Shown here piece after piece: positions 13,847 to 36,885 of a stretch of 63,765 bases of DNA (its first letter is position 1; every line of letters begins with the position of its first letter). A program made the position numbers and the translations under genes. Under the pieces are notes generated by a model, which saw only the letters and a list, made by a program, of their open reading frames with translations, made no database searches and was not told where the DNA came from. Where the stretch lies: positions 1 through 63,765 of the forward strand of contig CBEUCH010000018.1 in NCBI GenBank assembly GCA_965541585.1, written 5' to 3'. The stretch comes from an uncultured bacterium. GTDB lineage: Bacteria; Zixibacteria; MSB-5A5; UBA10806.

Positions 13847-16800
13847 TTATTCGCCCACCGCCATCCAGCAAATCAGAAAGACTTCCGATTCATCGATTAT
13901 CGGTAGAGGCTCTGGAGCGGCATATGGGGACATTCCCAACTCCTGGACCTTTTCGTGTATTTTGATAGATTTTTCCTCGTCCGAAAGCAATTCATCCCGC
14001 ATGATGGGTCGAAATTCTCTTTCATAACGAATACCCCATGGGGCAAGCAATGCTTCGACAGATTCCTGGATTTCTGATTGAGTGACGTTCTGAGGGGGAA
14101 ATTTGCGGACGTGTTCGGCGATTTCTCTGAATAGAGGTCTGATTCTAGGCTGCAAGTTTTTAGGATCAGTACCTCTAGTCCACTCTTCGTAGATATCCCG
14201 TCGAGCACGCTGCCATGCGACATACGCTCCGGAAATCATTTCGTCATTCAAATTACGAGGAGTATCGGCTTCGCACGATATCCGTCTTAGACAACCGAGC
14301 GTATCAGACAATAATAGGCCATCAGAGCTTGCAGGAATGAATCGCAAGAATATTTTATTCCCTACACTTGCGCAAAAGAACCATCCCTTCTGAACTCCAT
14401 GGGCGATACCTGATCCGGCAGCCCACGGAAGGCTTATTATCTCTCGTTCATATTCCTCCAACCCTTTCCGCAATTCCTGACGATACTCTTCTCCCGTATG
14501 AGCACCCTCGACTTCGTCGCCCCGCTCGAAAAGGTCCGCATCACCGTGGCGTAATGCTTCGATCTGATCCTGGGTTTCTGCAAACGTGATCTCCCCTATC
14601 GCACCGCCCGGGACGACCTCTGACTCGATACCGATCGACGCTGCGGCGCGAGCCAGCTTGCTTCTCACCCGATATTCAAGTGCCAATAAATCATCCAGGC
14701 GCACGTCCGGAAAAAAACACTTTATGAATACCTTTTCATGAGGGCTGCCAATTCTATCAATACGGCCATGCCGTTGGACAAGCCTCATTGGGTTCCAGGG
14801 CAAATCGAAATTGATTACATGACGGCATTGCTGCAGATTCATTCCCTCGGCCAAAATATCGGTGGTCACAAGAATGTCAAACCGGTCTTTCGCGAACCGC
14901 GCCGGCGCTTCCATGGAAATAGGTGCAAACCCAAATATTGTCGCTTCCCGGCTATCTCCCTGGAGCGATCGGTCTCCTACAAGGGCAGCGAGCCGACCCC
15001 TATACGTAGCCAGTCTACGATCGGTCTCGATCTTATCAATGAGATACTCATATATCCATTTGACGGTGTCGCCGTAATATGAAAATATAAGCACCTTTAT
15101 ATTGTCACGGGGGTATTCCCCCTCACCAGCTTCTTTCTTTGCCTTATTCAAAATCATCAGTAGCGATTCCAGAAGTTTGTGCAGTTTGGGTGACATATCC
15201 CGTGTGATCTTTTCGGCTATGTTCGCATAGGATCGCAGCAGATCACGATCACGCATTACATCTGCCCTCAATTCCTCAGCTCGAAATAGTGATAACGGCT
15301 GAGAGCCGGTCTCTAATAATAATTCCTCAATGGCTTCATCTGAGTCAGTCTCTATCAACTCCTCCATTGCCTGGGGAGACGGCACATAGCCTGCATCCAA
15401 GGCCGCAAGGAAGCGTTCATTTGATTCAGCCATTCTTGCGGTAGTCCGCCCAAATGCAAATACCGAGGATTCAAACCGCTTGAGTAAGGCTGACCGTATC
15501 AATCCCACCAGCGCCATTTCACTCCCTGCCGTTCCTCCTTCCCTGAGGTAGCCGGAGGGCTTGTAACGTGCCATTGTTAAAGCCGGTTCTCCCTCCTCGG
15601 GTGCTAAAGCCTCCGCAAATTCCTCGAAAAATCCTGGCGGCAAGACTTCCTCCAGGTCATATTCGATTCGATCCACGTAAGGCGTCGGGAATCGAACCGG
15701 AATCATGACGCCGTCCGGCATTGGAATGCGCTCATGCGGATACCATCTTTTCACGAAACGCCGTGTTCTCCTTACTGTCACTGGATCAAGCACATCAAAT
15801 AAAACGTCCGGACGTAAATCGAAAGGATCTGTCTTTTGTGCATCTGAGAAGCGGTCTTTAAGGGAGCGGATTCCTCTAGTGGCAAAAACAGCATCATGCT
15901 TGATGAAATAGGTCATCAGATAGTATAGATCCCATAGAGAGTTATTCACCGGTGTGGCCGTCATTAAAACGAGCTTTTTGGGCGGTTTTCCTCGCAAGAG
16001 CTTCCGAAGGGCCTGCGCTCGCTGTGTATCGGGGGTACGAAACGCCTGGGCTTCATCAATAACTATGAGTTCATATTCCTCCGGTCTGAAATCAGGCGGG
16101 CCTAAGACGAGCTGTTCATAGGAAAGATTTTCAAATCGCAGCTGCGTTCTTTTTTGAAAACGGTCCCAGGTGCCGTCGCGCAAAGCAGCCGGTGAAATTA
16201 AAAGAACTCTCTGGCGGTTTTCCTGAATGAGTCGCATCATCTCACCAGCTATAAACGTCTTCCCAAGGCCGACACCGTCCGCTATGATAACGCCATTATA
16301 TCGCTTGAGGATTCTTTGAGCGCGGTCGAGACCGTCATTTTGAAAAGTCGTTAAGGGAATCCTACCACTCGGCTGACGCTCCTCCTGCAAGTCATCTTTA
16401 TAAAGCTCCCATAAAACGCGCAAATATATAAGATATGGGTCATATTCAGCGTATCGCTCTTCGTAGATGCTGGCTAAATCATAGGGCTTAGCTTCGTCCC
16501 ACAGGCGATCAAACCACTCCTTCACTTGAGTCACCAATCCGGGTTGATAATGCCCCAGATTCAATTCAAGATTCGATATTAGCCCGGCGGCTGTGAAATT
16601 GGAGGAACCGGAAAGTACGCCCTCATCACCTGAGAAAATGAACGCCTTGCCGTGAAGAAATCTACTTTCATATCGTCGAACCTCTACCTTACCGGCTCGG
16701 AGGACATTGAGGAGTCGTTTGACGGTGGAGTCAACCCGAGGTTCGAATTCTAAGAGATCCCTATCTCTACGAATACCGGTTTCGCTTTCATCCAGCTTAT

Positions 16801-17086
16801 CAGTGAGTATTTTTTCATAAAACTTTGCACCCCTCGGATCGCGCTCCGGGTCACGGCGAGGCATGGCCGGTGGGGAGATCGGCTCAGCGCCCAGAAGCAA
16901 ACGAACATGAGATACACCGTCAAGGTGATCTGCTATCTCGGCGAATCCACCCGGATTGAAATAACCGGTAGCGATAGAAAGCTCGACCGGTTCGGCATAT
17001 GTCTGCTTGAGCCAGTCGAGGTGGGTTCTCAGAGCAATGGCAAGCGTGTTGCCATCAAGATTGTCGACAAATTCAGGTTTGCTCAT
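13847..17086 (-). CDS. PLD-family nuclease domain fused to an SF2 (SNF2-like) helicase
   Basis: FLHGKAFIF...GSSNFT (PLD); ADGVGLGKT, IDEAQ, MTATP, EGMNLQ, QRHGRIDR. Confidence 0.9.
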   Translation of the reverse strand: MSKPEFVDNLDGNTLAIALRTHLDWLKQTYAEPVELSIATGYFNPGGFAEIADHLDGVSHVRLLLGAEPISPPAMPRRDPERDPRGAKFYEKILTDKLDESETGIRRDRDLLEFEPRVDSTVKRLLNVLRAGKVEVRRYESRFLHGKAFIFSGDEGVLSGSSNFTAAGLISNLELNLGHYQPGLVTQVKEWFDRLWDEAKPYDLASIYEERYAEYDPYLIYLRVLWELYKDDLQEERQPSGRIPLTTFQNDGLDRAQRILKRYNGVIIADGVGLGKTFIAGEMMRLIQENRQRVLLISPAALRDGTWDRFQKRTQLRFENLSYEQLVLGPPDFRPEEYELIVIDEAQAFRTPDTQRAQALRKLLRGKPPKKLVLMTATPVNNSLWDLYYLMTYFIKHDAVFATRGIRSLKDRFSDAQKTDPFDLRPDVLFDVLDPVTVRRTRRFVKRWYPHERIPMPDGVMIPVRFPTPYVDRIEYDLEEVLPPGFFEEFAEALAPEEGEPALTMARYKPSGYLREGGTAGSEMALVGLIRSALLKRFESSVFAFGRTTARMAESNERFLAALDAGYVPSPQAMEELIETDSDEAIEELLLETGSQPLSLFRAEELRADVMRDRDLLRSYANIAEKITRDMSPKLHKLLESLLMILNKAKKEAGEGEYPRDNIKVLIFSYYGDTVKWIYEYLIDKIETDRRLATYRGRLAALVGDRSLQGDSREATIFGFAPISMEAPARFAKDRFDILVTTDILAEGMNLQQCRHVINFDLPWNPMRLVQRHGRIDRIGSPHEKVFIKCFFPDVRLDDLLALEYRVRSKLARAAASIGIESEVVPGGAIGEITFAETQDQIEALRHGDADLFERGDEVEGAHTGEEYRQELRKGLEEYEREIISLPWAAGSGIAHGVQKGWFFCASVGNKIFLRFIPASSDGLLLSDTLGCLRRISCEADTPRNLNDEMISGAYVAWQRARRDIYEEWTRGTDPKNLQPRIRPLFREIAEHVRKFPPQNVTQSEIQESVEALLAPWGIRYEREFRPIMRDELLSDEEKSIKIHEKVQELGMSPYAAPEPLPIIDESEVFLICWMAVGE

Positions 17087-17132: not shown

Positions 17133-20100
17133 TCACACCTTCTTCTTCCACTCCTTAAAATGCTTCAATGTTGCCCGCAGGCGCTCCTCGTAATCCCAGC
17201 CGACGTGGAATGTCTCGAATATATGGATTAGTTGTTTCTCACTCAACCCGTAAAGATGGGCCACTATGGCGTCGAGCTCATGGATCATATCCGTCTTCTC
17301 ATGCTCGGCTAGCGGACCATACTTGACCCCGACAGCCTTTGCGAATTCCGCGAAACGCCTATCCAAGCAGGCAAGGCGGCCAGCAACTGCTAATATCCGT
17401 GGCAGAATCTTATCGTCCTCAGCGATACGAGGGATGGGAAATGAGTTTATAAGATAGAAATTCATGCTTTCTTCAACGAATCTTCTTGAATACCAATCTT
17501 GAATGATCGAAGATAAAATAGCCAATAAATATACAATGTGCGAGGTTTTCCCCTTCGGCCATAAGAAGGTAGGACCCTTGTTGGTAATAACTACATTGGG
17601 AGGAATTAGAGCGATTCTAACTGTCCTACTATCAGTTGAACGACTAATATCTCTGAAAGCAATCCGTGGATGCAAACAGGGTAACGTAGATTGATCTTTA
17701 ATCCATTCGTCCGAAAATTCAAAGAAAACCGACCTGGCGTTTCGATGGCCACGCTCCCTCTTTTTTTGCAGGTGTTCTATGATCTTTTCAGGCTCAACCC
17801 AGGCGTAGTATTTGCTTGTATCGGGATTCCAGATATCGAAAGATTCACCTTTATAAACCGGCCAATAGCCTTTTGGCGGATCGTTGGTGAGGGTAAAAAG
17901 ATCCCGGTCATTTGTCGCATCGAGTTCGCGTAGAGGTCTGCAGCGCCAGCATCCGATATCGGCATCGAGACGAGGAGCCTTACGCATCTGCAAAAATACT
18001 TTCGCAGATTCTTCTGAAGGCAACAATGGTAAAGAAGCGGTGTCGGTCCAGCCTAATACATCTTCAACCTTATAGGAAACAGGAGGATTAGTTATACCCT
18101 CGTCAAACGTCGACTTACTGCGGTAGGGCCCTCGAAGGTATAGGGAATGATCATTCTTTTCAGGTGTCGATTTTTCAATACTCGTTAACGCTATGGTATA
18201 TCTCGGTTCCGCGTCATCAAAAACCCAACCTCCGCTATTTAGAAGATAAGTAATATCCTCAACTCGGCCATCTGTAAATACTTCTTTCCTGAACATCTCC
18301 GACCCTTTGACAAACCATGCTGAACGAGGTAGAACTACCCCTAATCTCCCGCCATCCTTGTAAATAAGATGCCAAAACCTCCAATAGAAGGCTTTGTAAA
18401 GATCGGGATCTCCCGTTCCCATACCGGGAAAAGGGCCGGTAGTAAGCACCCGGCGGAGAAGATCATTCTCTCTAATTTCTTGTTCGAGGATTCGAACCAG
18501 ATCGGATCGCTCTTTTCTATACTCATTTTTCAAGATTTCTTGGTCGCTCTGACGCATCCCCCGTAGGCCAGGAAAATGCCTTGCCCAAAATGCATCTTCT
18601 TCTATTGTGGCTTCTTCCCACGGCGGATTGCCGATGATGACGTCAAAACCTGGCCGGTCGCGCAGGAAGACCTCGGGAAAGGCAATGGGGAAATGAAATG
18701 GCGGGATGTCGCTCGTGGCTTTTCGGGCTTTCTTGTGCAGCGCGTAGCCGAACAGGTTTTGTAACTCGGTTAGCTTTGTAAGAAACCCGGCTGCTCCCGA
18801 GCCCATTTTTTTGACTATTTCCTTATCCAGACGGGCGGCTGAGAGGATATCGAAAAAGGCGCTTAATTCAGAGAGTCTTTTCCCAATCCCCTCATGAGCT
18901 TTTTTCGCCTTATCTATTTCTCCAATATCAGCGTCGGAGATTTCCCGCAGAGCCTGTATCTCCTTCTGGGCAGCTCCCAGCCACTTTTTTGCCGGGTCCT
19001 CGAATAAGTCCAAAGTATGCCCTTTGCTTGTTAGTTCCTCAAGCACTTCGTCGAAAGTCCCTATCCCCACCAGTGAGTTCCCGCAAACCAGGTTGTGATC
19101 AAGAAATGACAGCGGTAGTCCCGGCACGAACGTATGTATCCAGACCGACAGGCGGGCCAATTCCACCGCCAGGGGATTGAGATCGACCCCGTAAATGCAA
19201 CGTCGAGCAATCAGGCGACGCAGAAGTTGGTTTTTCTCCAGTCGGCGCTCGTCAACAGCCTCGCCGAGCTTTTCCCTGGCGACCGCACGGAGCTTCTCAA
19301 GCTCGGCATCGACACCCTTAAAATGAGGATTATCGCCCAGAAATGAGAGGAACCGTTTCTCAATACGGTCGATGGCGCTTATAAGAAAATGCCCGGAGCC
19401 CATGGCTATATCGGCCACGTAGAATTCGAACAGCATCCGGGACGCTTTATCGGTATCCGTTTTCGCCGCTTTCACCACCTTCTCCAGATGCTCGTCGAGA
19501 GCAGGCTCCAGCGAATGATCGAGCAGGTGATCGACCGCGAAACTCTTGGTATAATACGAACCGCTCGCTTTTCTAGCGCCGGATTTATTATGCAGGTATA
19601 TTTCGCCTTCGGAGACTACTACCTTCTTTTTACTGTCGGTGGGTTTGTAATGGCCTTTTTTGTCGGTTGTCAGATTGGAATCCGCAACCGAAAGCTCATT
19701 TTCGAGAAGGCCTTCATAGATCGTCCCGAATTCCCGAACGCCGAGGGATCGAAAATCAACCGGGCCGAGACCTTCGGGGGTATCCTCATCGAGAAGAAGA
19801 AAAGAGAGAATCAAACCAAACTCGCGGTTAGAGAGGCTGATCTTAGCCAATTCTGCGCCTGCAGGATGATCTTTACCCTCTTCAAACATACCACCGTTGT
19901 ACGGAGGTATATCCCATTCTGATTGACCATCACGAACGGCCTTCCATAATCGATTGACCTCATTCCAGAGAGAAGATCCCGGATCGAAACCATGATTCTC
20001 ATCAATAATCCGTTTTAATTCATGTGCAAGCCTCGTCAGGGACCTGCTTCTATACAACTCATTTGTCCTATACGGTAAAAGATCATGATCTTCGGCATAG

Positions 20101-21224
20101 GCCACAAATAAGAGCCTGAAGAGAACAAGCATGGCCATCTGGTAGGTAAGATCCAGGTCTTTAGATGACGGTTTCTTAAGCTTCCTGGCCTTCACCATTG
20201 CCATGGCCAATTGCGGTATGACTGATGTATAGATACGGTCTCTAAGGCGTTCGCCGATATCCTTGGCGTATCGTTCAGATTTTTCCCGAAGGACTTTGAA
20301 AAAGCCGTCGTCCCGAAGTCCTTCTGCAGACAAAATAAGCCAGGCAAACGGCAACCTTTTTTCCGGAAGCAATTGCAGATCAAGAGACAGATAGGTATCT
20401 GTAAGGCCCCGACGTCCAACTCCAACATCAGTTCGCGTTGGATAAAGTCTTATTTCACTTCCCCTGCTGACAATCACCCATTTGAGATTATGGGATTGAG
20501 CTAATTGTAAAGCGTAGGATACCGGTGTTTGATTACCAAACCGCCGAGATGGAAGCTCTGCAATTTCATTTTGATCCAGGAAAATGGCAAGCGCTAATTG
20601 TGAGCCTTTTGCCGTCAAAATGGACGCTGGACCAGTTAATGGCTCAATCGCATAACCAAGTCCGGATAGTAATTCCTTATCTTTAAGATCCCGTAAACGG
20701 ATCGATTTTTGGGCTGCTTTATGCCAGGCATCGGTTCCGATTTCATCTTCCCCTCGCTGCAATACATATGTGGCTAATAACCCCTGGTTTCGGATTCCGA
20801 ATATAGAAGACTGGGATTCCGGTAAATGATCGCGCAAGAATCTATCTACCGTATGGTGATCCGGTAATTCAAGGGCCGTCGCGCAAAGACGCTCGGCGTG
20901 CTCAACAGGCAGATCGGGCTGAACCGGTATTTGTCCACGTGACCGTTCGCTATGGCCACAAATGGAGCAATGATGATCGTATATGGCCACTATAAGAAGT
21001 GGGATTCCTCGCCCGGTCAAACGTTCCTTCCAGGCCTTGTGCAGTCCGTCCTTTGAAGGTCTGTGCGTACCGGTATACACAAGCAGTTCTAAACCGGGCG
21101 TTCCTTTGCCGAGAATGAGACCTCTCGCATTATACCCTTCGATTCTCGGAAATTCACCCGGGCGGTATTCATAACCGGCAAGGAAATTGATAGTATCGGA
21201 GCTCATCATAGGATTCTCACCCAC
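17133..21224 (-). CDS. Eco57I/type IIG-like DNA amino-methyltransferase with target-recognition domain
   Basis: GSYYT, DIAMGSGHFL (motif I), IYGVDLNP, GFDVIIGNPPW (motif IV). Confidence 0.9.
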   Translation of the reverse strand: MGENPMMSSDTINFLAGYEYRPGEFPRIEGYNARGLILGKGTPGLELLVYTGTHRPSKDGLHKAWKERLTGRGIPLLIVAIYDHHCSICGHSERSRGQIPVQPDLPVEHAERLCATALELPDHHTVDRFLRDHLPESQSSIFGIRNQGLLATYVLQRGEDEIGTDAWHKAAQKSIRLRDLKDKELLSGLGYAIEPLTGPASILTAKGSQLALAIFLDQNEIAELPSRRFGNQTPVSYALQLAQSHNLKWVIVSRGSEIRLYPTRTDVGVGRRGLTDTYLSLDLQLLPEKRLPFAWLILSAEGLRDDGFFKVLREKSERYAKDIGERLRDRIYTSVIPQLAMAMVKARKLKKPSSKDLDLTYQMAMLVLFRLLFVAYAEDHDLLPYRTNELYRSRSLTRLAHELKRIIDENHGFDPGSSLWNEVNRLWKAVRDGQSEWDIPPYNGGMFEEGKDHPAGAELAKISLSNREFGLILSFLLLDEDTPEGLGPVDFRSLGVREFGTIYEGLLENELSVADSNLTTDKKGHYKPTDSKKKVVVSEGEIYLHNKSGARKASGSYYTKSFAVDHLLDHSLEPALDEHLEKVVKAAKTDTDKASRMLFEFYVADIAMGSGHFLISAIDRIEKRFLSFLGDNPHFKGVDAELEKLRAVAREKLGEAVDERRLEKNQLLRRLIARRCIYGVDLNPLAVELARLSVWIHTFVPGLPLSFLDHNLVCGNSLVGIGTFDEVLEELTSKGHTLDLFEDPAKKWLGAAQKEIQALREISDADIGEIDKAKKAHEGIGKRLSELSAFFDILSAARLDKEIVKKMGSGAAGFLTKLTELQNLFGYALHKKARKATSDIPPFHFPIAFPEVFLRDRPGFDVIIGNPPWEEATIEEDAFWARHFPGLRGMRQSDQEILKNEYRKERSDLVRILEQEIRENDLLRRVLTTGPFPGMGTGDPDLYKAFYWRFWHLIYKDGGRLGVVLPRSAWFVKGSEMFRKEVFTDGRVEDITYLLNSGGWVFDDAEPRYTIALTSIEKSTPEKNDHSLYLRGPYRSKSTFDEGITNPPVSYKVEDVLGWTDTASLPLLPSEESAKVFLQMRKAPRLDADIGCWRCRPLRELDATNDRDLFTLTNDPPKGYWPVYKGESFDIWNPDTSKYYAWVEPEKIIEHLQKKRERGHRNARSVFFEFSDEWIKDQSTLPCLHPRIAFRDISRSTDSRTVRIALIPPNVVITNKGPTFLWPKGKTSHIVYLLAILSSIIQDWYSRRFVEESMNFYLINSFPIPRIAEDDKILPRILAVAGRLACLDRRFAEFAKAVGVKYGPLAEHEKTDMIHELDAIVAHLYGLSEKQLIHIFETFHVGWDYEERLRATLKHFKEWKKKV

Positions 21225-21382: not shown

Positions 21383-23110
21383 TTATTGGCTCTTGTTTTT
21401 AATCTTGATTAAGCTTCTTCGATCGACCGCATGCATTTTTTTTATCTGATCCCATGTTAATCCGTGTGCAGTTTTTTGCTTCAATAGAAGCTTCATCAGC
21501 TCCTCGGTTACATCGGTATAGCCATATTTGCGCAGTAATCCGAACATAATACGCTGCTCTTCCTCTGAAACCCTCATTTCAGGAATGCTTATTTGCTTCA
21601 CTTTTTTTCGTTGAATGCGACTTGACGGTAACTCAAAATGCTTTTTAATCTGCTCCTCATTCTGAGTGGGATGCTTTCCCTCTTCTGTCAATTTGAACGA
21701 TATATAAGGAGTATATCTCTCCGGCTTGTACTTCTGATGAGGACTCATTAGCCCCATAAAGAATAGTGCCGTATCAAACGATACCCGTGGATCCTTGATA
21801 TTCTCGGGGTTATATGTCCGGAAATATTCTATCTCTTTTTTGATTAGCTCCAATAGTTCATCGGGTAGTATATAGACGTCCGTATCTTTCAATCGGTCAT
21901 GAAGCCGGCTGGAGCTTGCAATATTGGTCTTGTCCGGAAGGTCCAGATATATAAGAAATCTCTGTTTCACTAAATGATCAAGGGTTCCCTTTGTAAAGAC
22001 GGCCTTATAAGTTCTTTCAGGGTTCCGTCGATAATACCAGGCAATTATCTGATTGCCAGCATATTTGATTTGTTCGGGCTGCCCATTATTCTCAATCAGA
22101 ACTTCCAGCGTCATGTCTTTCTCTATAATCGGCTGGCGATCAATTTGGTGGCTGAACCGGCTATAGAATCCATTCGATAACCTGCTATTTCTCAGCAAAT
22201 GCAAGATTTCCTGTTCGAGCTCGCGATATCCCCCCTCTTTCCAGTCGTATTCAACAAGGCAATAAAGATTGTGAAGGCTCCAGCAATGCCTCTTCTTGCC
22301 GTTTCTTGACTCTCCATGCTTTGACAGGATATCGCAGATGAATGGAATGATGTCGATTTTCCTTTCTGAAAGCGGTGGGATCTCCACGTGCCAAAGAGCG
22401 ATCCTATAATATAGTTCTTTGGAAAACTCGTCGGTATCCACAACCTTCTTATTTGTGGCGCAAATCAAACCGAAATTCGTTCTATACTGATCTTCAAAGG
22501 TTCCCCCGACCGGCATGACCTCTCGGTGTTCGAGCGCGCTCAATAAGGCGTTCTGTAATTCTCTTGATAGATTGCCGATTTCGTCCAGAAACAAGATACA
22601 CCCATCAGCTTGCTTCAACAAGCCTTCCTTGTCCTTCACCGCCCCGGTGAACGCTCCTTCCAAATGCCCGAATAATTCACTCCTGATTAGATTGGGTTCT
22701 ATTTCTGAGCAGTTTCGTGTAAAGGAATTTTTCCTGTTTTTTCCCCAGGCTCGCCGACGAATAGAGTCAACCAGGGCAGTTTTGCCGGTTCCGGAATCGC
22801 CTGTAACCAGAACAGAGTTCATACGATTGTCTACCGAGAGAAAATCTGCAATGTCATCCGCCATCCGCTTAAGATCGTTCATCGACTTGCTGAGGCCTAC
22901 GAGTTCCTTTACATCAAGGGAAGACGTAGAGTCTTTTGAACGGGATTTTTGACCTTTTGTCTTAAGTTCAGGTCGCTTAGTTCCCATCAATCTCCTGTCT
23001 GTCATATTTGTCTTGTCTATGCCATTATATAACCCTTCGGCGGTAAGGATCAAGCAAAAAAGGTCAATATAAGCAAGCTCCTTGAGATCAATATTAGAAT
23101 AGTTTATCAA
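21383..23110 (-). CDS. Sigma-54-dependent enhancer-binding AAA+ activator without a recognisable sensor domain
   Basis: GDSGTGKT, SELFGHLEGAFTGA, FLDEIG, ICATN, LYYRI; long unassigned C-terminal region; start uncertain. Confidence 0.85.
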   Translation of the reverse strand: MINYSNIDLKELAYIDLFCLILTAEGLYNGIDKTNMTDRRLMGTKRPELKTKGQKSRSKDSTSSLDVKELVGLSKSMNDLKRMADDIADFLSVDNRMNSVLVTGDSGTGKTALVDSIRRRAWGKNRKNSFTRNCSEIEPNLIRSELFGHLEGAFTGAVKDKEGLLKQADGCILFLDEIGNLSRELQNALLSALEHREVMPVGGTFEDQYRTNFGLICATNKKVVDTDEFSKELYYRIALWHVEIPPLSERKIDIIPFICDILSKHGESRNGKKRHCWSLHNLYCLVEYDWKEGGYRELEQEILHLLRNSRLSNGFYSRFSHQIDRQPIIEKDMTLEVLIENNGQPEQIKYAGNQIIAWYYRRNPERTYKAVFTKGTLDHLVKQRFLIYLDLPDKTNIASSSRLHDRLKDTDVYILPDELLELIKKEIEYFRTYNPENIKDPRVSFDTALFFMGLMSPHQKYKPERYTPYISFKLTEEGKHPTQNEEQIKKHFELPSSRIQRKKVKQISIPEMRVSEEEQRIMFGLLRKYGYTDVTEELMKLLLKQKTAHGLTWDQIKKMHAVDRRSLIKIKNKSQ

Positions 23111-23214
23111 AAGTGGCCAATATCGCTATTTTCGGGCGGTTTACCGTCCTCAACTCGGCGCCAGAAAAGCTCTTACTGTTGCTAACGCCCTTCAGTTCAT
23201 AAACTTACATGGAT

Positions 23215-23230
23215 TGGCACGTTATCTGCA
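23215..23230 (+). promoter_or_regulatory. Sigma-54 (-24/-12) promoter upstream of the element's replication genes
   Basis: TGGCACGTTATCTGCA, i.e. GG-N10-GC, ending 30 nt before the ATG at 23261 and divergent from the GAFTGA activator. Confidence 0.8.
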
Positions 23231-23260
23231 ATACTCGAATCAGTAGAACAGGAAAATAAA

Positions 23261-23551
23261 ATGAGACAACAGAAAAGACGACAGATTGCAATTGACGACA
23301 TCAAACTTGCTGCCTATCTGCATGCAAAACAGATTCCTATAGAGAGAGTCCAGCGATCTGGCAGATATGGCTGTTTCTATTTCGACGAAAAGAAGGCCCG
23401 GGCTGAAGTGGACAGATATGTGCTTGGCGAAGCCCTCGTTGAGCCAAAGGTGTTCTCAGCAGCGATCCGGGAGTTACGATCGCTCGTCGATAGCCTGTCC
23501 GACGAAATCAGCAGAGAGTTTACTGCACAGACAGATGGAAAGGCATCATGA
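23261..23551 (+). CDS. Small protein, DUF5659-like (mobile-element associated)
   Basis: DIKLAAYL...FYF pattern; RBS; ATGA overlap with the primase gene. Confidence 0.65.
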   Translation: MRQQKRRQIAIDDIKLAAYLHAKQIPIERVQRSGRYGCFYFDEKKARAEVDRYVLGEALVEPKVFSAAIRELRSLVDSLSDEISREFTAQTDGKAS

Positions 23552-26002
23552 GTAATTCTGTCAAAAGACTGCCATTGGAGCCCCATCATATTGAAGACTT
23601 ACAGAGATCCGGTCTTTCCTTAAAGACAATCCGAGAAGCGAATGTTCACTCGATTTCAGATGAAGCCGTAGAGAGAATATTGGGATTCAACATCACAAAA
23701 TCAGCGGGCCTGGCTTTCCCATATCTTTTGCCGGAAGGAACCGCATCTGACCCGTTCATTCGCGTCAAAATTGATTTGCCGCCAATAATAAATGGCAAGA
23801 CGGCACGATACCTAAGCCCTAAAGGATCGGGGAATCGTCTTTATATTCCTCCGGGGATTCAGTCATCACTGAAGGATACATTCAAGGCAATCTATATAAC
23901 TGAGGGCGAAAAGAAAGCGCTTAAGGCCGTACAGGAAGGCCTCTACTGCGTCGCCCTATCTGGAGTATGGTGTTGGAGAGAAAAGGACCACTCGGGGGAA
24001 AGTCATCCCATAGGAGATCTCGACTTGCTTGAGTGGAATGATAGGCACGTTTTCATCGTCTTTGATTCAGATGCCATCCAAAAACCATCGGTATTGAAAG
24101 CGGAAAAGGCATTAGCGGAAGAACTCTTTTCAAGAGGCGCCGTCGTTAGAGCTATTAGGCTACCCGGTGGGAACCATGAGAAAGTGGGATTGGACGATTT
24201 TCTGACGGAAAACTCGGTCGGTGATCTGCTCCAGCTACTTCAAATTGATCCCTTAGATCAGAAAAAGAAGAAAACGTCACGGTCTGGTGAAACTCAAAAT
24301 AAAAAGCTGATTGATTATGGATCGCTACTATTCCTTTTTCATGATCAACACAAAGAGGCCTTTGCCTTTATTGACGGCAATTCCGTCCCTCTGAGTGCCA
24401 AGAGAGCTAAACGCTGGTTAACACGATGCTTTTATGAAGACGAAGGAAAAGCTCCAAACACTGATACGCTCAACCAGGCAATACTGGCATTAGAGGCAAA
24501 GGCACTTTTCGATGGCCCGGAAATAACGCTTAATAACCGTGTAGCCTCCCACGAAGGAGCTTTCTGGCATGATTTAGGCAACGGGCAGGCAATTAAGACA
24601 GTTCCAGGAAAATGGGAAATTGCAGAATCCCCGGTTCTATTTAGAAGATATTCCCATCAGCAAATTCAAGTAACGCCGTCGCCCGGTGGTGATCCTTTTG
24701 CTGTATTTAAGTTCTTAAACGTCAGGGGTGACCAAGAGCTGCTGGTGCTGGCCTGCTTAATCTCATACTTTATTCCTGATATCCCCCACCCGATCTTCCA
24801 TCCCCATGGTCCGCACGGGTCCGGGAAAACCTCTTCCTGCGTATTAATAAAAAGACTTTGTGATCCGTCGACTATTGAAACTTTAATATCACCCAAAAAC
24901 CCTACCCAACTGATACAGCTACTGGCCCACCATCATGTTTGCCTTTTCGACAACATGAGTAATTTACCCGACTGGATGTCTGATATCTTATGTCAGGCGT
25001 GCACCGGCGGAGGGTTCAGCAAAAGACAACTGTACACCGACGACGATGACATCATTTACCAGATCAAAAGGTGCGTAGGGCTTAACGGAATAAACTTGTT
25101 AACCATCAAATCTGATATTCTGGATCGAAGTATTCTGCTTCATCTCGAAAGGATCGATAGCCGGACACGGCTGGAAGAAAGCGATATTTGGAGATCATTT
25201 GATGAGGCCAAGCCAAAGATACTTGGCGGTATTTTCGATGCTCTGTCAAGGGCTATGGCGATATACCCAACCGTCAATTTCCCCTGTCTCCCCCGGATGG
25301 CGGACTTTGCCAGATGGGGGGGCAGCTATCGCCGAGGCGCTCGGTTTCAGCGGAGAGGAGTTTCTCCGAGCATATCAGTGCAACGTTGACAGGCAAAACG
25401 ATGAGGCCATTCAAAGCAATACGCTGGCTCAGGCGGTCCTCACCCTAATGTCAGAACGAGAATCCTGGGAAGGTACTGTCAAGAAAGCCCACAACAGGCT
25501 CCGGGAAATCGCCGATCCAGATAGGAAAGACCCTACTTTTCCCAGAAGCAGCCGGACCTTGCGCAAGCATCTGGAGCGGATCAAGGCAAATCTGCAGGAT
25601 TACAGCATCACATACACCATCGGCGAGCGGACCAGGGACGGATATCCGATCAGTTTCCGTAAAGATGATAATTTTGGTTCACTTGCTTCACAGCCGCTGG
25701 AAGACAAAGAGTTAACTAGTGAACCAAGTGTGAACGAAAGTGAAGCAAACGGAATATCACCATTATTTGATTCACCACATAACCCGTTGAAAGACAATAT
25801 CTGTGAACTTGGTGAACCAGATGCATCAAATTTCAAAGCCTTACGGATTGGCTCCCCAACCTCACCAACGAATCTGAAAGATTGGCCGGAAGAATTGCGA
25901 GAAGAGTTCGAGGAGCGAGCGGCCATCATGGAATTTGACGGCGGATTAAGCCGAGACGAGGCCGAAATGGCAGCTCTCCTATTGGCTGGAGAGCCAACCT
26001 GA
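23548..26002 (+). pseudogene. DUF3854/Toprim-like primase fused to a P-loop helicase-like domain, split by a frameshift in a G7 run at 25316-25322
   Basis: YLSPKG, ITEGEKKA, FDSD, GLDDFL; GPHGSGKT, FDN. LPRMADFARWG continues as AAIAEALG in the other frame. C-terminal FEERAAIMEFDGGLSR..AE motif. Confidence 0.8.
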
Positions 26003-26064
26003 GAGGTTGTTTGACGGACAAAATGAGACACAAAAAAAAGAATATTAATATGAGGGGGAAAACA

Positions 26065-26286
26065 ATGACTGACAGACCCATTACAACCATGGAAAAAAAC
26101 TCGCAGGAGGAGATCCGGTTCTCCCTGCAGGAATACCGGGGCACTGATTTGATCGACATCAGGGTATACTACGATCCCGGTTCCGGCAAACGGAAACCGA
26201 CCAGGAAGGGCATCTCGGTTCCGGTTGATCGATTTGATGAATTCATGGAATGCCTTAAGAACGTTAAGAAAACCGTCTCTACATAG
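26065..26286 (+). CDS. PC4/p15-family single-stranded DNA-binding protein
   Basis: KNSQEEIRFSLQEYRG..LIDIRVYY...PTRKGIS; GAGGGGG RBS before the ATG at 26065. Confidence 0.85.
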   Translation: MTDRPITTMEKNSQEEIRFSLQEYRGTDLIDIRVYYDPGSGKRKPTRKGISVPVDRFDEFMECLKNVKKTVST

Positions 26287-26421
26287 CATGATTAGCAGAG
26301 AAAATTCAGGCAAGAACGGTCACATAGGAAATGGGAATTTCCTGAAATACGAGACCGCTGATACGAAAAATGGATCAAAAGAGAGTAGGAATTCATAGGC
26401 TATGGAGATTATCACAGAAGG

Positions 26422-26754
26422 ATGATGAGAGATAAGCAGAATATCGAGATTGTCGAATTGCGACCTTGCTCGCTGGTGGGAGCGGCGGCGTTCCTGCGAA
26501 GGATTTACATCATTGAGGGTATAATGACTAATGATCTGTCGTTGAAGCTCTTCAACCGGGCTACAGGCGAATACGATATAGCGCGACCCTTGACCGATGA
26601 AGAGCGGTTACAGCGGCGTCTCGAAAAAGCCAAGACCAGTTATAAGCAAAAGCGGATTGCCCGATCGGAACGAGCTAGAAAAGAGGCTCGCAGGAAGCGG
26701 GAATGGCGGAAACGGAAGAACGTCCCGGACTCCCCCATTTTGAGGGAAAATTGA
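26422..26754 (+). CDS. Hypothetical basic protein
   Basis: 110-aa ORF co-oriented with the replication module, Arg/Lys-rich C-terminus; start uncertain. Confidence 0.45.
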   Translation: MMRDKQNIEIVELRPCSLVGAAAFLRRIYIIEGIMTNDLSLKLFNRATGEYDIARPLTDEERLQRRLEKAKTSYKQKRIARSERARKEARRKREWRKRKNVPDSPILREN

Positions 26755-26761
26755 TATTATG

Positions 26762-26774
26762 TATCAACGAGTTA
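26762..26774 (+). promoter_or_regulatory. IHF-consensus site upstream of the excisionase
   Basis: TATCAACGAGTTA matches WATCAANNNNTTR exactly. Confidence 0.5.
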
Positions 26775-26893
26775 CAGCGGACGTTTCGAGGGGGTATGTG
26801 GTTTGACATGAAAAAATCGGCTGAAAATGTTAACCGATTATATTTCAAGAAGTTAATAATTCGGGTGAAAATACAGGAATGAGCCTCTGATCG

Positions 26894-27094
26894 ATGCAGA
26901 AACTACTGACCGTTGAAGAGATCGCCGACTACCTGCAGGTCAAGCCGTCTACCATCTACCAGTGGACGCATCAGGGGTTCATTCCGCATGTAAAGCTGGG
27001 GAATCGGGTGAGGTTCAGGCTGAGCCAGGTGGACAGGTGGATTGAGAGGAGAGAGAATAATGGGAGGACATTAAAAAGGTTGCAGATATTATGA
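26894..27094 (+). CDS. Excisionase-family helix-turn-helix protein
   Basis: LLTVEEIADYLQVKPSTIYQW...IPHVKLG..VRF. Confidence 0.88.
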   Translation: MQKLLTVEEIADYLQVKPSTIYQWTHQGFIPHVKLGNRVRFRLSQVDRWIERRENNGRTLKRLQIL

Positions 27095-27405
27095 TGGCAG
27101 GAATCAACATGTGAGCTGTGTCACCCTGCAACAGCTTCACGTCTTTGTTAGATTTCGAGGATTTAAAGTCACCGAGAATATGACCGAAAACTGTAATGAA
27201 GAAAACTAAATAACGGACGAAGAATGCCTTGTCGTGTAAGACATGGGCTTGCAAGAGTGAGGCGCAATCAAGTCGCTTTTTTGAGCGATCTTGGCTGCGC
27301 CTTTTTGTTTTGAGGTAACATGCGCTTTAAGCGAGACCAGCAATGAAACAAAGAAACCAGGAGAGAATAACCGGTCCAGAGTGACCAGAGTAAAGGAGGA
27401 AGGCC

Positions 27406-28326
27406 ATGACGCCGGAAGTAACTACAGATCAGAGACCTACGGAGGCAGCGGGGCAGAAGCCATACGATGCCCAGATCCTAATCAAGGAACTATGCTCCCA
27501 CCTTCGAATGACCCGGGAGACCAACAGGAGCACGTGGATAGACAGGATCATCGAGGGCAACCTGCTCAAGGCCATGAACAAAGAGGAAATCACGGAAGAA
27601 ACCTCTAACATCTACGACAGCTACATTGCGGTATTGGAAACAGGCAAAGAGGAGGACCTTACCGCCTACGCCCGGGGCCTCTCGGAACGCATTATACCTC
27701 GCGGGGTATCAACCGGCGAGGTCATAGGAATTGTTCTCCTGCTGCGCGACATTCTCTCGCGCTCACTCAACGACAAGTATCGAGGGGACATGACCTACCT
27801 TAACAACGTGATGGACATATACGAGCCAGCCGCGAACCGGATCGCCACCATCGTGTCCGCCTCCTTCGTGGAGGAGCGCGAGCGGTCGCTCAAGGAACAG
27901 CAGGAGGCTATCCGGGAACTGTCGACGCCCGTTTTCGCCGTATGGCAGCAACTTCTGGTATTGCCTATAATTGGAACAATCGACACGGTCCGGGCCAAGC
28001 AGCTGACCGAGAATCTGCTGGCTGGCATCCGTCGCCAGCGGGCGAAGGTGGCGATAATGGACATTACGGCAGTACCGTCCGTGGATTCCAAGATTGCCAA
28101 CCATATCCTTCAGGCAATTGACGCCGCACGTATGCTCGGCTGTGACGTGATTCTGACCGGCGTTTCAGAGGTGATTTCGCAGACGATGGTACAACTGGGC
28201 CTCGATCTATCGCGCGTCAAGGCAGTGCTTGACCTCCAAAGCGGAATAGAGCAAGGTATCACCGCGCTGGGGTTGGAGATTAGGTCATTAAGCGCTCAGA
28301 AGGCAGTGGACATGCCCAAGGAGTAA
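27406..28326 (+). CDS. rsbR: Stressosome sensor RsbR (helical N-terminal domain + STAS)
   Basis: QQEAIRELSTPV, PIIGTIDTVRA, DITAVPSVDS; AAGGAGG RBS. Confidence 0.9.
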   Translation: MTPEVTTDQRPTEAAGQKPYDAQILIKELCSHLRMTRETNRSTWIDRIIEGNLLKAMNKEEITEETSNIYDSYIAVLETGKEEDLTAYARGLSERIIPRGVSTGEVIGIVLLLRDILSRSLNDKYRGDMTYLNNVMDIYEPAANRIATIVSASFVEERERSLKEQQEAIRELSTPVFAVWQQLLVLPIIGTIDTVRAKQLTENLLAGIRRQRAKVAIMDITAVPSVDSKIANHILQAIDAARMLGCDVILTGVSEVISQTMVQLGLDLSRVKAVLDLQSGIEQGITALGLEIRSLSAQKAVDMPKE

Positions 28327-28330
28327 TTCC

Positions 28331-28693
28331 ATGCTGTCCCAGGTTCCGATCTTAAAGATTGAAGACTACCTTCTGGCAACGGTTCAAGCCACTCTTTCGG
28401 ATGAGGATATCGTTAATTTCGGGCAGAAACTGCTTCACGCCGTGGGTCGCCAACGGATGAGAGCGGTAATTATTGACTTAAGCGCCCTGGACGTGATCGA
28501 TTCCTTCGCCACCCGCCAGTTTCGCAACATGGCCAACGCCACGCGGCTACGGGGGGCGCGCACTATAATGGTTGGCATCCAGCCGGACGTGGCCTACGGT
28601 CTCGTCCAACTGGGCATGCGGCTAACGGGGATTGAGACGGCTCTTGACCTTGAGGACGCCCTGGCGGTACTCAAAAAAGGAAGGCGCCGGTGA
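28331..28693 (+). CDS. rsbS: Stressosome STAS scaffold RsbS
   Basis: VPILK, IDLSALDVIDSF (phospho-Ser), GIQPDVA, TALDLE. Confidence 0.9.
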   Translation: MLSQVPILKIEDYLLATVQATLSDEDIVNFGQKLLHAVGRQRMRAVIIDLSALDVIDSFATRQFRNMANATRLRGARTIMVGIQPDVAYGLVQLGMRLTGIETALDLEDALAVLKKGRRR

Positions 28694-29085
28694 ATACCGC
28701 CTCAATTCCCATCAAGAACGAGAACGACTTGGTATCCGCCCGCCTTCAGGGGCGGGATATGGCAAAGGAAATAGGCTTTGGCGTTTTTGATCAAACGCTG
28801 ATTTCGACCGCCATTTCTGAACTGGCGCGAAACATCCTATCGTACGCTGAAACCGGTGAGATGCTGCTTGAGATGACTTCAGACGGGTCCCGCCGGGGCA
28901 TTCGGCTGCGTGCCATCGACAAAGGACCGGGTATAGAGGACCTGGAGGCGGCTCAACATGAGGGCTATTCTACCGGCGGGGGGTTGGGGATGGGGCTATC
29001 AGGCGTCCAACGGCTAATGGATGAATTCAGTATCGAGTCCGAGCCAGCCAGGGGCACAACCGTGGAGGTACTCAAATGGCTATGA
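28690..29085 (+). CDS. rsbT: Stressosome Ser/Thr kinase RsbT
   Basis: TAISELARNI, DKGPGI, GYSTGGGLGMGL, RLMDEF, KWL. Confidence 0.92.
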   Translation: MNTASIPIKNENDLVSARLQGRDMAKEIGFGVFDQTLISTAISELARNILSYAETGEMLLEMTSDGSRRGIRLRAIDKGPGIEDLEAAQHEGYSTGGGLGMGLSGVQRLMDEFSIESEPARGTTVEVLKWL

Positions 29086-29699
29086 AGAGGATGGCGACTG
29101 CAACGAAACTCAATTTCGGAACCAAGACGGTTTCCTCGCCAGGAGAGGAGATGGCGGCGGATTTATGGGTCGTGAAGCAATTTGGAGAGCAGTGGCTGAT
29201 GGCCGTCATAGATGGCCTGGGTCACGGCCCAGAGGCCCTTAAAGCTGCTGAGACTGCCAGGGGAGTCATTGAAATGTTTGAGGGGCAGCCGCATCCGGCG
29301 ACCATTCTGACGGAGTGCAGCGCAGCGATGACGAATACCCGCGGGGCAGTGATCGGACTGTGTCTGGTGGACTATGGCCGCGACCGTCTAACATGGTCTG
29401 GAGTGGGAAACATTGAAGGCAAGGTAGTTTGGCGCGAAACCGAGGGGCAGCTTCAGCAGGTATCGCTGATTTCTACTCCCGGTATTGTGGGGTGCGATCT
29501 TCCCAAACTCAACCAACAGGTCTGTAAACTGAAACCTGCCAGCCTGATAATCATGTTTACCGACGGACTCGACAGCAAATGGGTATTTCCCGAAAACCGC
29601 TGGCTTTTCGAAATGGAGCCGGAGGCGCTGGCGGCACACCTGATGAAGAGTCACAGCAAAAAGACAGACGATAGCCTTGTAGCTGTAGTGAGGTACTGA
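29076..29699 (+). CDS. rsbX: RsbX-like PP2C/SpoIIE phosphatase
   Basis: IDGLGHGPEA, TRGAV, GVGNIE, GIVG, FTDGL, DDSL. Confidence 0.85.
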   Translation: MAMKRMATATKLNFGTKTVSSPGEEMAADLWVVKQFGEQWLMAVIDGLGHGPEALKAAETARGVIEMFEGQPHPATILTECSAAMTNTRGAVIGLCLVDYGRDRLTWSGVGNIEGKVVWRETEGQLQQVSLISTPGIVGCDLPKLNQQVCKLKPASLIIMFTDGLDSKWVFPENRWLFEMEPEALAAHLMKSHSKKTDDSLVAVVRY

Positions 29700-29703
29700 C
29701 GAA

Positions 29704-30171
29704 ATGGGAGATAACACGCGGGGCGGAAAACAGAGCAATCAACTGCAGGTCAGGATAGCCAGCCATGCTGAAGTCATTAATCTGACCGGCAAGATAAAGG
29801 CATTGTTGGATGGGGGCTGTTCGCCCGAAGAGGAGGCTGAGATCGCCACCGCTGTTATAGAGCTGGCTTCCAACGCCTTGCAGTATGCGGGTTCGGGAGA
29901 TTTGAATCTCCAGATCGAGGGCGACATTTTAACTGTCAGTTGTGAGGACAACGGTCCCGGCATCCTGACGTGGGATTTAAGGAAGTACGAGGAGTTGGAG
30001 CTGAGCCACAACCTTGGCGAGGGCCTCGGTGTGGTGCATCGGCTCATGGATATGGTGGAAATTGAAACGAAAGCAGGAAGGGGAACAAGGATCATCGCCA
30101 GGCGCCGCCTGGGGGTTCGCACTGGTCCTCCTCCACTGCATGATGACGAAACGCGGAAGATCGGGGGTTAA
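29704..30171 (+). CDS. Second RsbT/anti-sigma-like HATPase protein
   Basis: TAVIELASNALQYAG, EDNGPGI, LGEGL, RLMD, GRGT. Confidence 0.8.
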   Translation: MGDNTRGGKQSNQLQVRIASHAEVINLTGKIKALLDGGCSPEEEAEIATAVIELASNALQYAGSGDLNLQIEGDILTVSCEDNGPGILTWDLRKYEELELSHNLGEGLGVVHRLMDMVEIETKAGRGTRIIARRRLGVRTGPPPLHDDETRKIGG

Positions 30172-30175
30172 CGCT

Positions 30176-31285
30176 TTGACACAGCATTTAGTGAGAGAAG
30201 CCAAGATCGATTTTGAGAACGTACTCCTCAAAATGCCCGAGGCCGCGCTGATTGAGAATGAGAGGCATGAAATTGTCTGGGCTAACGATGCTGCCCGGCA
30301 ACTCTTGAAAGTGAAGGCCGGAGAACCATCGGTAATACCGGGCGAAATTACGGAGGAATTGGCAAAAGGGAATAAGGATTTTATTATCAAAAAGCTCCGA
30401 ATTAAAGGACTCACGTTAGAATGCAAGTCGTCCATTCAAAAGGGCGGGAAATCTGAAACTAATATCTTTTCAATACTATCCGACGTATCGGAGCTGGAAA
30501 ACATCGCCGCCCACTGGTCCAAAATAGCCGAGGAAAGCGAGCGGAAAGCGGTGGAACTGGCACGGTCAAACGAGGAACTGGAGCAGTTTGCGTATGTAGC
30601 CTCGCATGACCTGCAGGAACCGTTACGAAAGATAAAGAGTTTTACAGAGCTTTTTGCCCAGCGCTTCAAGGGGAAAATCGATGAGAAAGCGGATAAGTAT
30701 ATTTATTACATCATAGATAGTACGGCCCGTATGCAGGGACTAATCAATGATTTACTATCATATTCACGGGTGAGCAGTCAAGGTCAACCCTTTAAGATGA
30801 CAGACTGCGAGAAGGCACTCGATTATGCAATAAGTAATTACCAGATGGCAATAAAAGAGAGCGACGCGGAGATAACGCACGATAAGCTCCCCTCAATTGT
30901 GGCTGATGAATCACAGTTGATACAAGTGTTCCAAAACCTGATTGGCAACGCTATAAAATTCAGCGGAGAAAAATCTCCGCGCATTCATATTTCGGCGAAG
31001 GATGAACATAGCGAATGGATTTTTTCGATCCAAGACAATGGTATAGGGATTGAAGCAAAGTATGCGGAACGCATTTTCATAATTTTTCAGCGATTACACA
31101 GCCGGGAGGAAAGTCCCGGCAGCGGAATCGGCCTGTCTATATGCAGGAAGATCGCAGAACGTCATGGGGGCCGTATCTGGGTTGAATCAACCCCCGGGGA
31201 GGGTTCAACGTTTTATTTCACTATACCAAAAAGCGAAAATGTGGCCAAAAAAGATAACAAAACATTAGTCAAGGCAAGGAGTTAA
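30176..31285 (+). CDS. PAS-containing sensor histidine kinase (Cph1-type transmitter)
   Basis: [42 protein letters not shown]; start uncertain (30140 or 30176). Confidence 0.88.
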
Positions 31286-31289
31286 GACG

Positions 31290-31796
31290 ATGGATGACGA
31301 GAAATTCGGAAGCCCCATTGAGGTGTTGCTCGTCGAGGATGACCCGGGCGACGTTGAGCTGATGACCGAAGTAATGAGTAAAGCAAGGTTAAAAATCAAG
31401 ATGAACGCGGTGAGCGATGGCGTTAAAGCATTGGCGTATCTGCGCAGAGAGGGCGAATACGCTGATTCAACCAGGCCCGACCTGATATTGCTCGATCTTA
31501 ACATGCCCGGAAAAGATGGCCGGGAAGTGCTTCGTGAAATCAAGAATGAGGAAAGCTTGAGGTCCATACCCGTAGTAATCCTGACCACATCCGACGCAGA
31601 TGAGGATGTTGTTAAAACATATACGCTTGGCGCAAGCTGCTATGTTACCAAGCCAGTGGGGTTGGAACAGTTTGCCAAGGTGGTGGAATCTCTCGAAGAT
31701 TTCTGGTTTACGGTTGTAAAGTTCCCCCCGCGGAAAGACAGCGAACTTGAAAAGGACAAAGATCATGAGAATATCCATTCTTCTGGTAGAGGATGA
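31290..31796 (+). CDS. Single-domain response regulator (Rcp1-like)
   Basis: [37 protein letters not shown]. Confidence 0.9.
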
Positions 31797-32619: not shown

Positions 32620-32638
32620 ATATCCGAGGAGGAGACTA

Positions 32639-32947
32639 ATGAATAAGCAAAAAATGACATTGTACATCACGGGGCTTACGCCCAAATCGGAACGGGCTAT
32701 CGCCAATCTACGGAAGGTCTGCGATGAGGAGCTTGGCGATCAATATGAAATTGAAGTTGTTGATATTCTCGAGCATCCTCAACTGGCGGAGGACCAGAAA
32801 ATCCTGGCGACGCCAACCCTGATTAAGGTTTTACCTCCACCCCTTCGCCGAATCATAGGAGATCTTTCCAATTTAGAAAAGGTCTTAATTGGACTTGACA
32901 TTCAGGTCCGCATACAAAAGACGGAGGAATCCAATGTGTCCGAATAA
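32639..32947 (+). CDS. kaiB: Circadian clock protein KaiB
   Basis: LYITGLTPKS, PQLAEDQKILATPTLIKVLPPPLRRIIGDLSN.EKVLIGLD. Confidence 0.96.
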   Translation: MNKQKMTLYITGLTPKSERAIANLRKVCDEELGDQYEIEVVDILEHPQLAEDQKILATPTLIKVLPPPLRRIIGDLSNLEKVLIGLDIQVRIQKTEESNVSE

Positions 32948-34472: not shown

Positions 34473-34552
34473 GTGAATGTGTCTGAGCGGCTGAACAGCA
34501 TACGAGACAGGAAATGCCGTTTCTCGGCAATTGAAACTCGGGCGGTACAGGT

Positions 34553-36874: not shown

Positions 36875-36885
36875 AATTTAGATTA

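Follow-up and report, generated by a model that had tools for sequence, protein, structure and literature searches.

The contig CBEUCH010000018.1 of an uncultured Zixibacteria bacterium (assembly GCA_965541585.1) was analyzed over 63,765 nt (the window) and carries an integrative island of 31.7 kb, bounded by two copies of the 14-mer TCCCAGTCTCTCCG. Within the island, a gene for an enhancer-binding protein of bacteria (bEBP), here called the activator, is divergent from a row of genes for a DUF5659 protein, a primase-helicase, a PC4-like protein, a 76-aa protein and an excisionase (xis), and a sigma-54-type −24/−12 promoter lies between the two (Table 1). Sigma-54 promoters require a bEBP (PMC4641369). 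We propose that activator and promoter together are an exchangeable sigma-54 switch controlling replication and excision, in which the island's own activator would open the promoter that it faces and set off one predicted transcript; from the sequence comparisons below, we put the probability of this reading at about 0.7.

A sequence-only reading of this stretch had described a GAFTGA-containing AAA+ activator divergent from TGGCAC-N5-CTGC, and the profile and site searches agree with it. The activator open reading frame (ORF; 21383-23110, minus strand) matches Sigma54_activat, PF00158, at 1.4e-41 (142 bits against a cut-off of 20) and contains GAFTGA; translation probably begins at ATG 23005 or at 22987, the latter preceded by AGGAG, and not at TTG 23110. 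The promoter at 23215-23230, TGGCACGTTATCTGCA, is located 31 nt 5' of the DUF5659 ATG and has one mismatch to TGGCACG-N4-TTGCW, a consensus that agrees with PMC4641369. Sites with at most one mismatch number 17 in the 3.52-Mb genome, a site of this kind lies 25-100 nt upstream of 0.14% of 2,123 long ORFs, and the island has no other 1-mismatch site. Two-mismatch sites in the window are at chance level (5 observed, 6.5 expected).

The promoter is preserved in related contigs, for which five of 12 listed sequencing runs from four studies were compared (X4, X5, X6 and X8 are marine or sediment metagenomes by record). Between 23212 and 23233 the sole listed change is at spacer base 23222; in X5, 23 changes are listed for the segment 23136-23211 upstream of the promoter, and in X5 and X6 the alignment extends well past the promoter boxes on both sides. 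In X1, a single contig of 13.6 kb holds methylase, activator, promoter and primase together at about 89% identity, and the methylase part of the type IIG enzyme adjoins the activator in contigs of both X1 and X5. Sites for integration host factor (IHF) in Table 1 were sought with the IHF consensus.

Table 1 Features of the island, its switch region and its operon in window coordinates
Feature	Position	Strand	Basis and remarks
att core TCCCAGTCTCTCCG, distal end of element	6804..6817	-	14-mer identical to end of tRNA-Ser on contig C10
Arm-type direct repeat GGTCACA-N4-GG(G/C)CACA, inside distal end	6951..6968	+	arm function presumed
Cargo: branched-chain-amino-acid-type ABC transporter genes, ThiH/HydG-like radical SAM gene, 258-aa unknown gene	7097..13644	-	profile scans
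PLD-SNF2 helicase (defense cargo)	13847..17086	-	profile scan
Type IIG restriction-modification enzyme (defense cargo)	17133..21224	-	REase_MTase_IIG 3.5e-294
Sensor-less bEBP activator	21383..23005	-	PF00158 and GAFTGA; AAA+ core about aa 35-270
Sigma-70-like promoter candidate for activator, TTGATC-18-TATAAT	23024..23053	-	consensus match only; 10 found against 9.3 expected in region
Candidate enhancer (upstream activating sequence), about −105 to −140	23103..23135	.	putative; no listed substitution in three related contigs
Weak IHF-like site GTTCATAAACTTA, about −40	23195..23207	+	3 mismatches; TCA and TTA unchanged in 4 contigs, bases between vary
Sigma-54-type −24/−12 promoter TGGCACG-TTAT-CTGCA, TGGCACGTTATCTGCA	23215..23230	+	GG-N10-GC; consensus match
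DUF5659 protein, 96 aa, first gene of operon	23261..23551	+	PF18903; 40% identical to first gene in L170
DUF3854 primase fused to P-loop helicase-like domain; frameshifted	23548..26002	+	PF12965
PC4-like single-stranded-DNA-binding-type protein	26065..26286	+	PF02229 1.3e-14
Arg/Lys-rich conserved protein, 76 aa	26524..26754	+	no family match; 62% identical in L013
Two IHF-consensus sites between 76-aa gene and xis: 26762 exact, 26843 one mismatch	26762..26855	+	first kept in L013
Excisionase-family helix-turn-helix protein (xis)	26894..27094	+	HTH_17, TIGR01764 1e-17; weak AlpA match 0.001
Non-coding motif with terminator-like hairpin at its end; closes operon or leads cargo	27201..27312	+	sequence repeats
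Exchangeable cargo between xis and integrase: RsbR/S/T/X-like, histidine kinases, response regulators, KaiB, KaiC	27406..37275	+	profile scans
Tyrosine integrase, 381 aa	37316..38461	-	profile matches
Arm-type direct repeat, inside integrase end	38443..38460	+	repeat search
Strong sigma-70-like promoter candidate for integrase, TTGACA-16-TATACT	38477..38504	-	consensus match, 11/12
att core at integrase end; junction with next tandem unit	38537..38550	-	14-mer copy

The activator belongs to a clade of its own. A HMMER search with its C-terminal region over 1.84 billion representative sequences gave nine relatives, and further searches led to eight near-complete metagenomic proteins that are 33-44% identical to the window activator; those looked up in NCBI were not on record. 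In a 78-row quick tree, which left out rows that were duplicate, too short or without a clear Walker A, the clade has a support of 100 (SH-like approximate likelihood ratio test, SH-aLRT) on a stem of 1.14 and is separate from the 15 host and the viral bEBPs. The clade profile matched nothing in 284 other genomes of the host phylum, in 284 genomes around G285 or in 168 around G286 (all incomplete samples), nor in the viral contigs, phages and plasmids searched, and a word-index search with the C-terminal part of the activator gave no match. As the sequence-only reading had it, the activator is without a sensor domain: in all eight members an N-terminal regulatory domain is absent and 46-76 residues precede Walker A. 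GAFTGA, Walker B, the second arginine finger (of the NtrC1 R299 type) and the sensor II arginine are invariant throughout the clade (8/8).

Behind the AAA+ core follow a variable linker, a family domain of ~80 aa (about aa 365-440) with the clade-wide pattern E-x-x-Y ... DPR ... F ... YxPY, and a likely helix-turn-helix (HTH; about aa 480-540). The ~80-aa domain has no family match and no PDB sequence match beyond the ATPase lid. The predicted structure, modeled from an 8-row alignment and usable for the ATPase and the last helices only, matches the NtrC1, ZraR and PspF folds, with all fold-search matches coming from the ATPase part; its three C-terminal helices reach a predicted local distance difference test score (pLDDT) of 72-76 at aa 501-530. 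The HTH, placed in the last 60 aa, is weakly supported: Atlas leads of 0.83-0.87 point to HTH_8 clusters, no Pfam match to HTH_8 is found in the activator, and hhalign gives an HTH probability of only 9%, yet above 30 of 30 shuffles. The long C-terminal region, which had been left unassigned, is thus partly explained, whereas none of the data point to the helper-phage sensing suggested for it.

The arrangement recurs outside the window. A metagenome scan for activator-replication linkage returned 145 pattern matches, two of which were confirmed (L169 and L170), and in all three clade members with flanking DNA the activator faces a replication operon across a −24/−12-like site. In L170, the activator is divergent from a DUF5659 gene, 40% identical to that of the island, and then comes a partial gene whose resemblance to replisome organizers is by eye only, with no family match; the site, TGGCATG-CTTT-TTGAC, lies 34 nt before the first ATG. 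In L169, the opposite genes encode a replication initiator of the replisome-organizer type, DnaB, an adenine methylase, ParB and the small and large terminase subunits; the site, TGGCCCG-AATC-TTGTA, lies 117 nt before the initiator, and a serine recombinase gene follows the activator. (The terminase gene is abutted by repeats at L169 112-1870 that look like a CRISPR array and show up as recurring peptides among the listed ORFs.) Shuffling gave p values of <0.0005 for the window site, 0.007 for L170 and 0.008 for L169. Among bEBP-less comparison loci, none of 11 reached two or fewer mismatches within 200 nt (the starts used for L055 and L184 are a few bases off in that test). Of 67 primase loci, none had a 1-mismatch site within 1.5 kb.

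Profiles confirmed the DUF5659, DUF3854, PC4 and excisionase genes that the sequence-only reading had assigned to the operon, with two amendments: the primase-helicase gene is interrupted by a frameshift at the G7 run 25316-25322, and the hypothetical gene probably starts at 26524, giving 76 aa. The relatives of the primase-helicase are 760-880 aa long and in frame; those shown, one of them 90% identical and nine others, are all unbroken, and programmed frameshifting was rejected on these 10 of 10. The frameshift is either decay or an assembly error, and unless it is the latter this copy of the island may excise without replicating. The PC4-like protein is, by its family, of the single-stranded-DNA-binding type. 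Directly 5' of the 76-aa gene, 26460-26523 is conserved in L013, though probably non-coding, and could possibly be a structured RNA or an origin. L013, binned with Ignavibacteria, shares primase, 76-aa gene, xis and integrase with the island but carries different cargo; it begins inside the primase, and a search of its genome for what lies upstream in the element gave no match.

In the proposed circuit, the integrase would be made constitutively from its sigma-70 promoter, so that the island stays integrated until Xis appears. The host, whose 3.52-Mb genome is 98% complete and contains rpoN, would supply a sigma-54 polymerase that waits as a closed complex at 23215-23230, leaving the operon silent without a repressor. 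With its C-terminal HTH, the activator would then occupy the enhancer at about −105 to −140, and a DNA loop over a bend made by IHF or HU near −40 (the genome has two HU/IHF-family genes) would let it open the promoter. The DUF5659 protein, primase-helicase, PC4-like protein, 76-aa protein and excisionase would be expressed from one predicted transcript, after which Xis and the primase-helicase would excise and amplify the island. The trigger is the weakest step of this model. Within it, we tentatively favor a protein or ligand that gates the activator through the conserved ~80-aa domain following the lid; a pure expression threshold is a possible but doubtful trigger, and a PspA-like inhibitor acting in trans a rather unlikely one.

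Several observations weigh against a sigma-54 switch of this kind. First, context is available for only three of the eight clade members, and L170 spans 1.6 kb. Selection of the sites followed their viewing and allowed a mismatch at the −12 C, which is absent from two of the three, L169 and L170. L186, a bEBP-less DUF5659 locus, has a 3-mismatch site (p 0.045), and in X1 and X8 the promoter is close to the end of the alignment, a place at which changes may be missing from the list. Second, a shared enhancer motif or palindrome was sought across the window, L169 and L170 and none was found, the HTH assignment of the activator's end is weak (hhalign 9%), and co-transcription from DUF5659 down to xis is an assumption. 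Third, the ATPase motifs deviate: in 8/8 members the Walker A lysine is not followed by an acidic residue (T, R, K or Y instead; an ordinary AAA+ Thr in the window activator), the switch Asn is replaced by Asp in seven of eight (the window activator keeps it), and the first arginine finger is missing in seven of eight. Since these positions deviate, ATPase coupling may be altered; the acidic residue is typical of bEBPs (PMC7175178) and not strictly required.

At last, the conserved linkage of bEBP and primase expected by the sequence-only reading does not hold. Any bEBP upstream is found in only 2 of 58 primase relatives with at least 3 kb of upstream sequence (L016 and L055), and these bEBPs belong to a different clade, are co-oriented and have N-terminal domains, with sites of 2 and 4 mismatches; the closest primase relatives carry XRE/Cro/IrrE-like or other regulators, as in L009, where an XRE repressor takes the regulator slot. 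Primase matches in the phylum (G048, G005) are serine-recombinase elements with no bEBP in the stretches examined. DUF5659 is not specific to bEBP loci, as its relatives L183-L186 have other large upstream genes. Judged across these loci, what is conserved is the pairing of activator and promoter and not that of activator and primase; the pair sits in a swappable regulator slot and, in L169, stands before a replicon of phage type. The idea of an element family switched by sigma-54 survives in this form: a sensor-less bEBP with a −24/−12 site before replication genes in 3/3 cases, whichever replication genes these are.

Among other accounts, one concerns transfer and is separate from the question of control: the island would be a satellite whose activator senses a helper phage. 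Integrase, xis-like regulator and primase are present as in phage-inducible chromosomal islands (PICIs) and their minimalist counterparts (PICMIs), the latter do without capsid-remodeling genes (PMC10803314), and L169 has both terminase genes under the same switch. The island is nevertheless 31.7 kb long against about 10 kb, with large exchangeable cargo and no packaging gene found. As the sequence-only reading had stated for repressor, capsid and conjugation genes, the scanned element proteins include no capsid, terminase, repressor, conjugation or relaxase family (Pfam, PHROGs). More specifically, the 31 element proteins compared with PHROGs contain no small terminase or capsid-morphogenesis gene (a match of xis to a terminase-small model spans the HTH only), and the scanned proteins contain no Psu, Delta, Sid or Ash family of P4-like elements. 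Terminase_6C has no match in the 98% complete host genome and the clade none in viral contigs. We consider a helper-phage satellite unlikely, and the label 'satellite' given earlier is unproven. For integrative conjugative or mobilizable elements, the Pfam scan of element proteins gave no relaxase or type IV secretion family, and VirB4-type PF03135 has no match in the host genome.

Control itself could be inverted, the activator being a lock and not a key: an ATPase-crippled bEBP, bound to the enhancer and to sigma-54, would hold the operon shut, or would compete with host bEBPs, and its removal would induce the operon. The deviating Walker A, switch and first-finger positions would suit a lock, the divergent layout resembles that of phage repressors, XRE repressors occupy the slot in relatives (L009), and a constitutive activator of group 4 would cost much. 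We still regard a lock as quite unlikely, given the invariance of GAFTGA, Walker B, the second finger and sensor II, the ordinary Thr of the window activator, PspF variants that activate with very low ATPase activity (PMC3791423), and a sigma-54 promoter that is already silent without an activator. It is improbable, too, that a host bEBP drives the promoter and couples mobilization to host physiology while the island activator serves other targets such as cargo or defense genes: the genome does encode 15 other bEBP-type proteins and no common enhancer was found, but the −24/−12 site accompanies the clade protein in unrelated replicons and is absent from loci without it, and the island offers no further 1-mismatch site. 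Chance pairing of an ordinary cargo gene with a random site, for which the chance-level count of 2-mismatch sites and the small sample could speak, is very improbable against the 0.14% background for a site at such a distance, the recurrence in L169 and L170, the promoter conserved in related contigs and a clade for which neither the host genes nor 284 other genomes of the phylum gave a match.

An integrated element has to be quiet and yet able to fire fully once this pays, and the known solutions are repressors or sigma-70 activators. If the sigma-54 switch is real, the element would be silent by default and need ATP and a dedicated activator, a leak-free control without a repressor in a circuit as small as one gene and 260 bp; it would also restrict the element to hosts that have rpoN and link mobility with energy state. 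A broader and speculative possibility, to which we give less than even odds, is that a portable cassette of bEBP and −24/−12 site is a third type of switch beside repressors and AlpA/FlhDC-like activators, recruited several times independently, with the ~80-aa domain as a new C-terminal sensor that replaces the N-terminal domain and an altered glutamate switch. The recruitments counted for this are the present clade, the unrelated activators of L016 and L055, and HTH-less phage bEBPs. In any case, the clade provides a naturally occurring bEBP form, with its ATPase motifs altered and an unmatched domain added, that is useful for studies of motor gating. Two side observations concern such other bEBPs. 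The L016 and L055 loci (2968-4760 and 6979-8960) are Latescibacterota primase elements, in which a bEBP with an N-terminal domain of about 190 aa and no Pfam match lies upstream of an HTH/primase operon. In 18 of 62 viral bEBP loci, some near-identical, a short activator (~300 aa) is followed within 250 nt by a co-oriented −24/−12 site of the TGGCA(C/T)-N5-(T/C)TGCT type (L196, L199, L203-L205, L207, L208, L214, L223, L228, L232, L235, L236, L238, L240, L243, L245 and L248), and most of these 18 fall within a 22-row clade of the tree.

The island's att cores (6804-6817 and 38537-38550) equal the 3' end of the tRNA-Ser(GGA) gene on contig C10. The sequence-only reading had spoken of tRNA-linked integrases; the window contains no tRNA gene, only 3'-end copies of tRNA-Ser(GGA), and the integrase lies 10 kb beyond xis. 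The core occurs eight times on four contigs (C10, C18, C21 and C22) with at least two arm types, which would suggest a tandem array of islands, the contigs not being joined. The distal end of the island recurs at window 57592 (83%) and at C21 27444 (96%). Beyond the distal core, the segment 5257-6663 holds an integrase remnant with stops (6060-6663) and a GIY-YIG/RAMA, PDC-S14-like protein. On the other side, the next tandem unit (38564-57591; 19 kb, flanked by att cores and without an integrase match) contains a nitrite oxidoreductase (NXR)-type operon, in which 41119-44565 matches NXR subunit A of PDB 7b04 with 1,904 bits and genes for beta subunit, delta-chaperone, Rrf2 and multiheme cytochromes are present; it is possibly a respiratory cassette moved in trans.

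In a second X1 contig, xis and the integrase end are connected by 6,068 bases that differ from those of the island; the cargo slot between the two genes is therefore exchangeable. In the island this slot encodes a full KaiC above the NCBIfam cut-off with KaiB, hybrid kinases and Rsb-like genes alongside, a putative mobile clock-like or stressosome signaling block. Ahead of it, the non-coding motif of ~110 nt exists in four genome copies (27201-27312 and C26 9908, 22166 and 27377) that are 88-90% identical; it contains two hairpins, to which most copies add a U-tract. No Rfam family matched in the window, this motif included, and it is a candidate leader or riboswitch-like RNA.

Compared with known systems, the activator is closest in plan to the group-4 bEBPs PspF and HrpR/S, which likewise have no N-terminal regulatory domain (PMC7175178; PMC3791423) and share the clade-6 AAA+ core with GAFTGA and the divergent sigma-54 promoter; the C-terminal HTH is only probable in our case. 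It differs in about 275 residues after sensor II, against about 90-110, which include the unmatched ~80-aa domain; in a GGYREL sensor II and a non-acidic residue after the Walker A lysine; in its score with the PspF model (114 bits, far below the 444-bit cut-off); and in its target, the replication operon of a mobile element. With PICI and P4-like satellites (PMC10085698), the island has in common a tyrosine integrase, an AlpA/MerR-like HTH protein (here xis), a primase-replicase and att sites. In contrast to them, it has no terminase, capsid, Psu, Sid or Delta gene, a bEBP in the regulator slot, an integrase that lies at the opposite end with 10 kb of cargo in between, and a length of 31.7 kb against medians of 9.5-10 kb, rarely 20-28 kb (PMC10085698). 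The integrase, HTH and primase of a PICI are thus present, and the island falls outside both PICI and P4 families on packaging genes and size. PICMIs share the minimal kit of integrase, excisionase-like and primase genes without capsid remodeling, and their split of constitutive integrase and regulated excisionase is what we expect here; they are small, located by fis in Vibrionaceae and induced by helper phage, and the accessible text describes no sigma-54 control (PMC10803314).

The best functional analog, by gene content and not by hallmark profiles, would be the cargo-carrying tycheposons (bioRxiv 10.1101/2020.12.28.424599). These share the tRNA-targeted tyrosine integrase, xis, primase/helicase, large cargo that can be exchanged, islands built from partial tRNA repeats, and the lack of capsid and conjugation genes; as far as the available text goes, they are one gene-sharing group in Prochlorococcus, 10-20 kb long and induced by mitomycin, with no bEBP described. 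The phage AAA+ protein Htm/Gp204 is, like the activator, a mobile-element protein proposed to act on sigma-54 polymerase (bioRxiv 10.64898/2026.10.06.757011); it is without GAFTGA or HTH and acts on host genes, with no cognate element promoter. The literature searched, in which subscription journals are mostly uncovered, gave no element with replication or excision genes under its own bEBP, and 'DUF5659' gave 0 matches. It is well supported by these comparisons that the island would represent a new regulatory variant on a familiar type of element, with an activator-promoter pair that resembles PspF at pspA.

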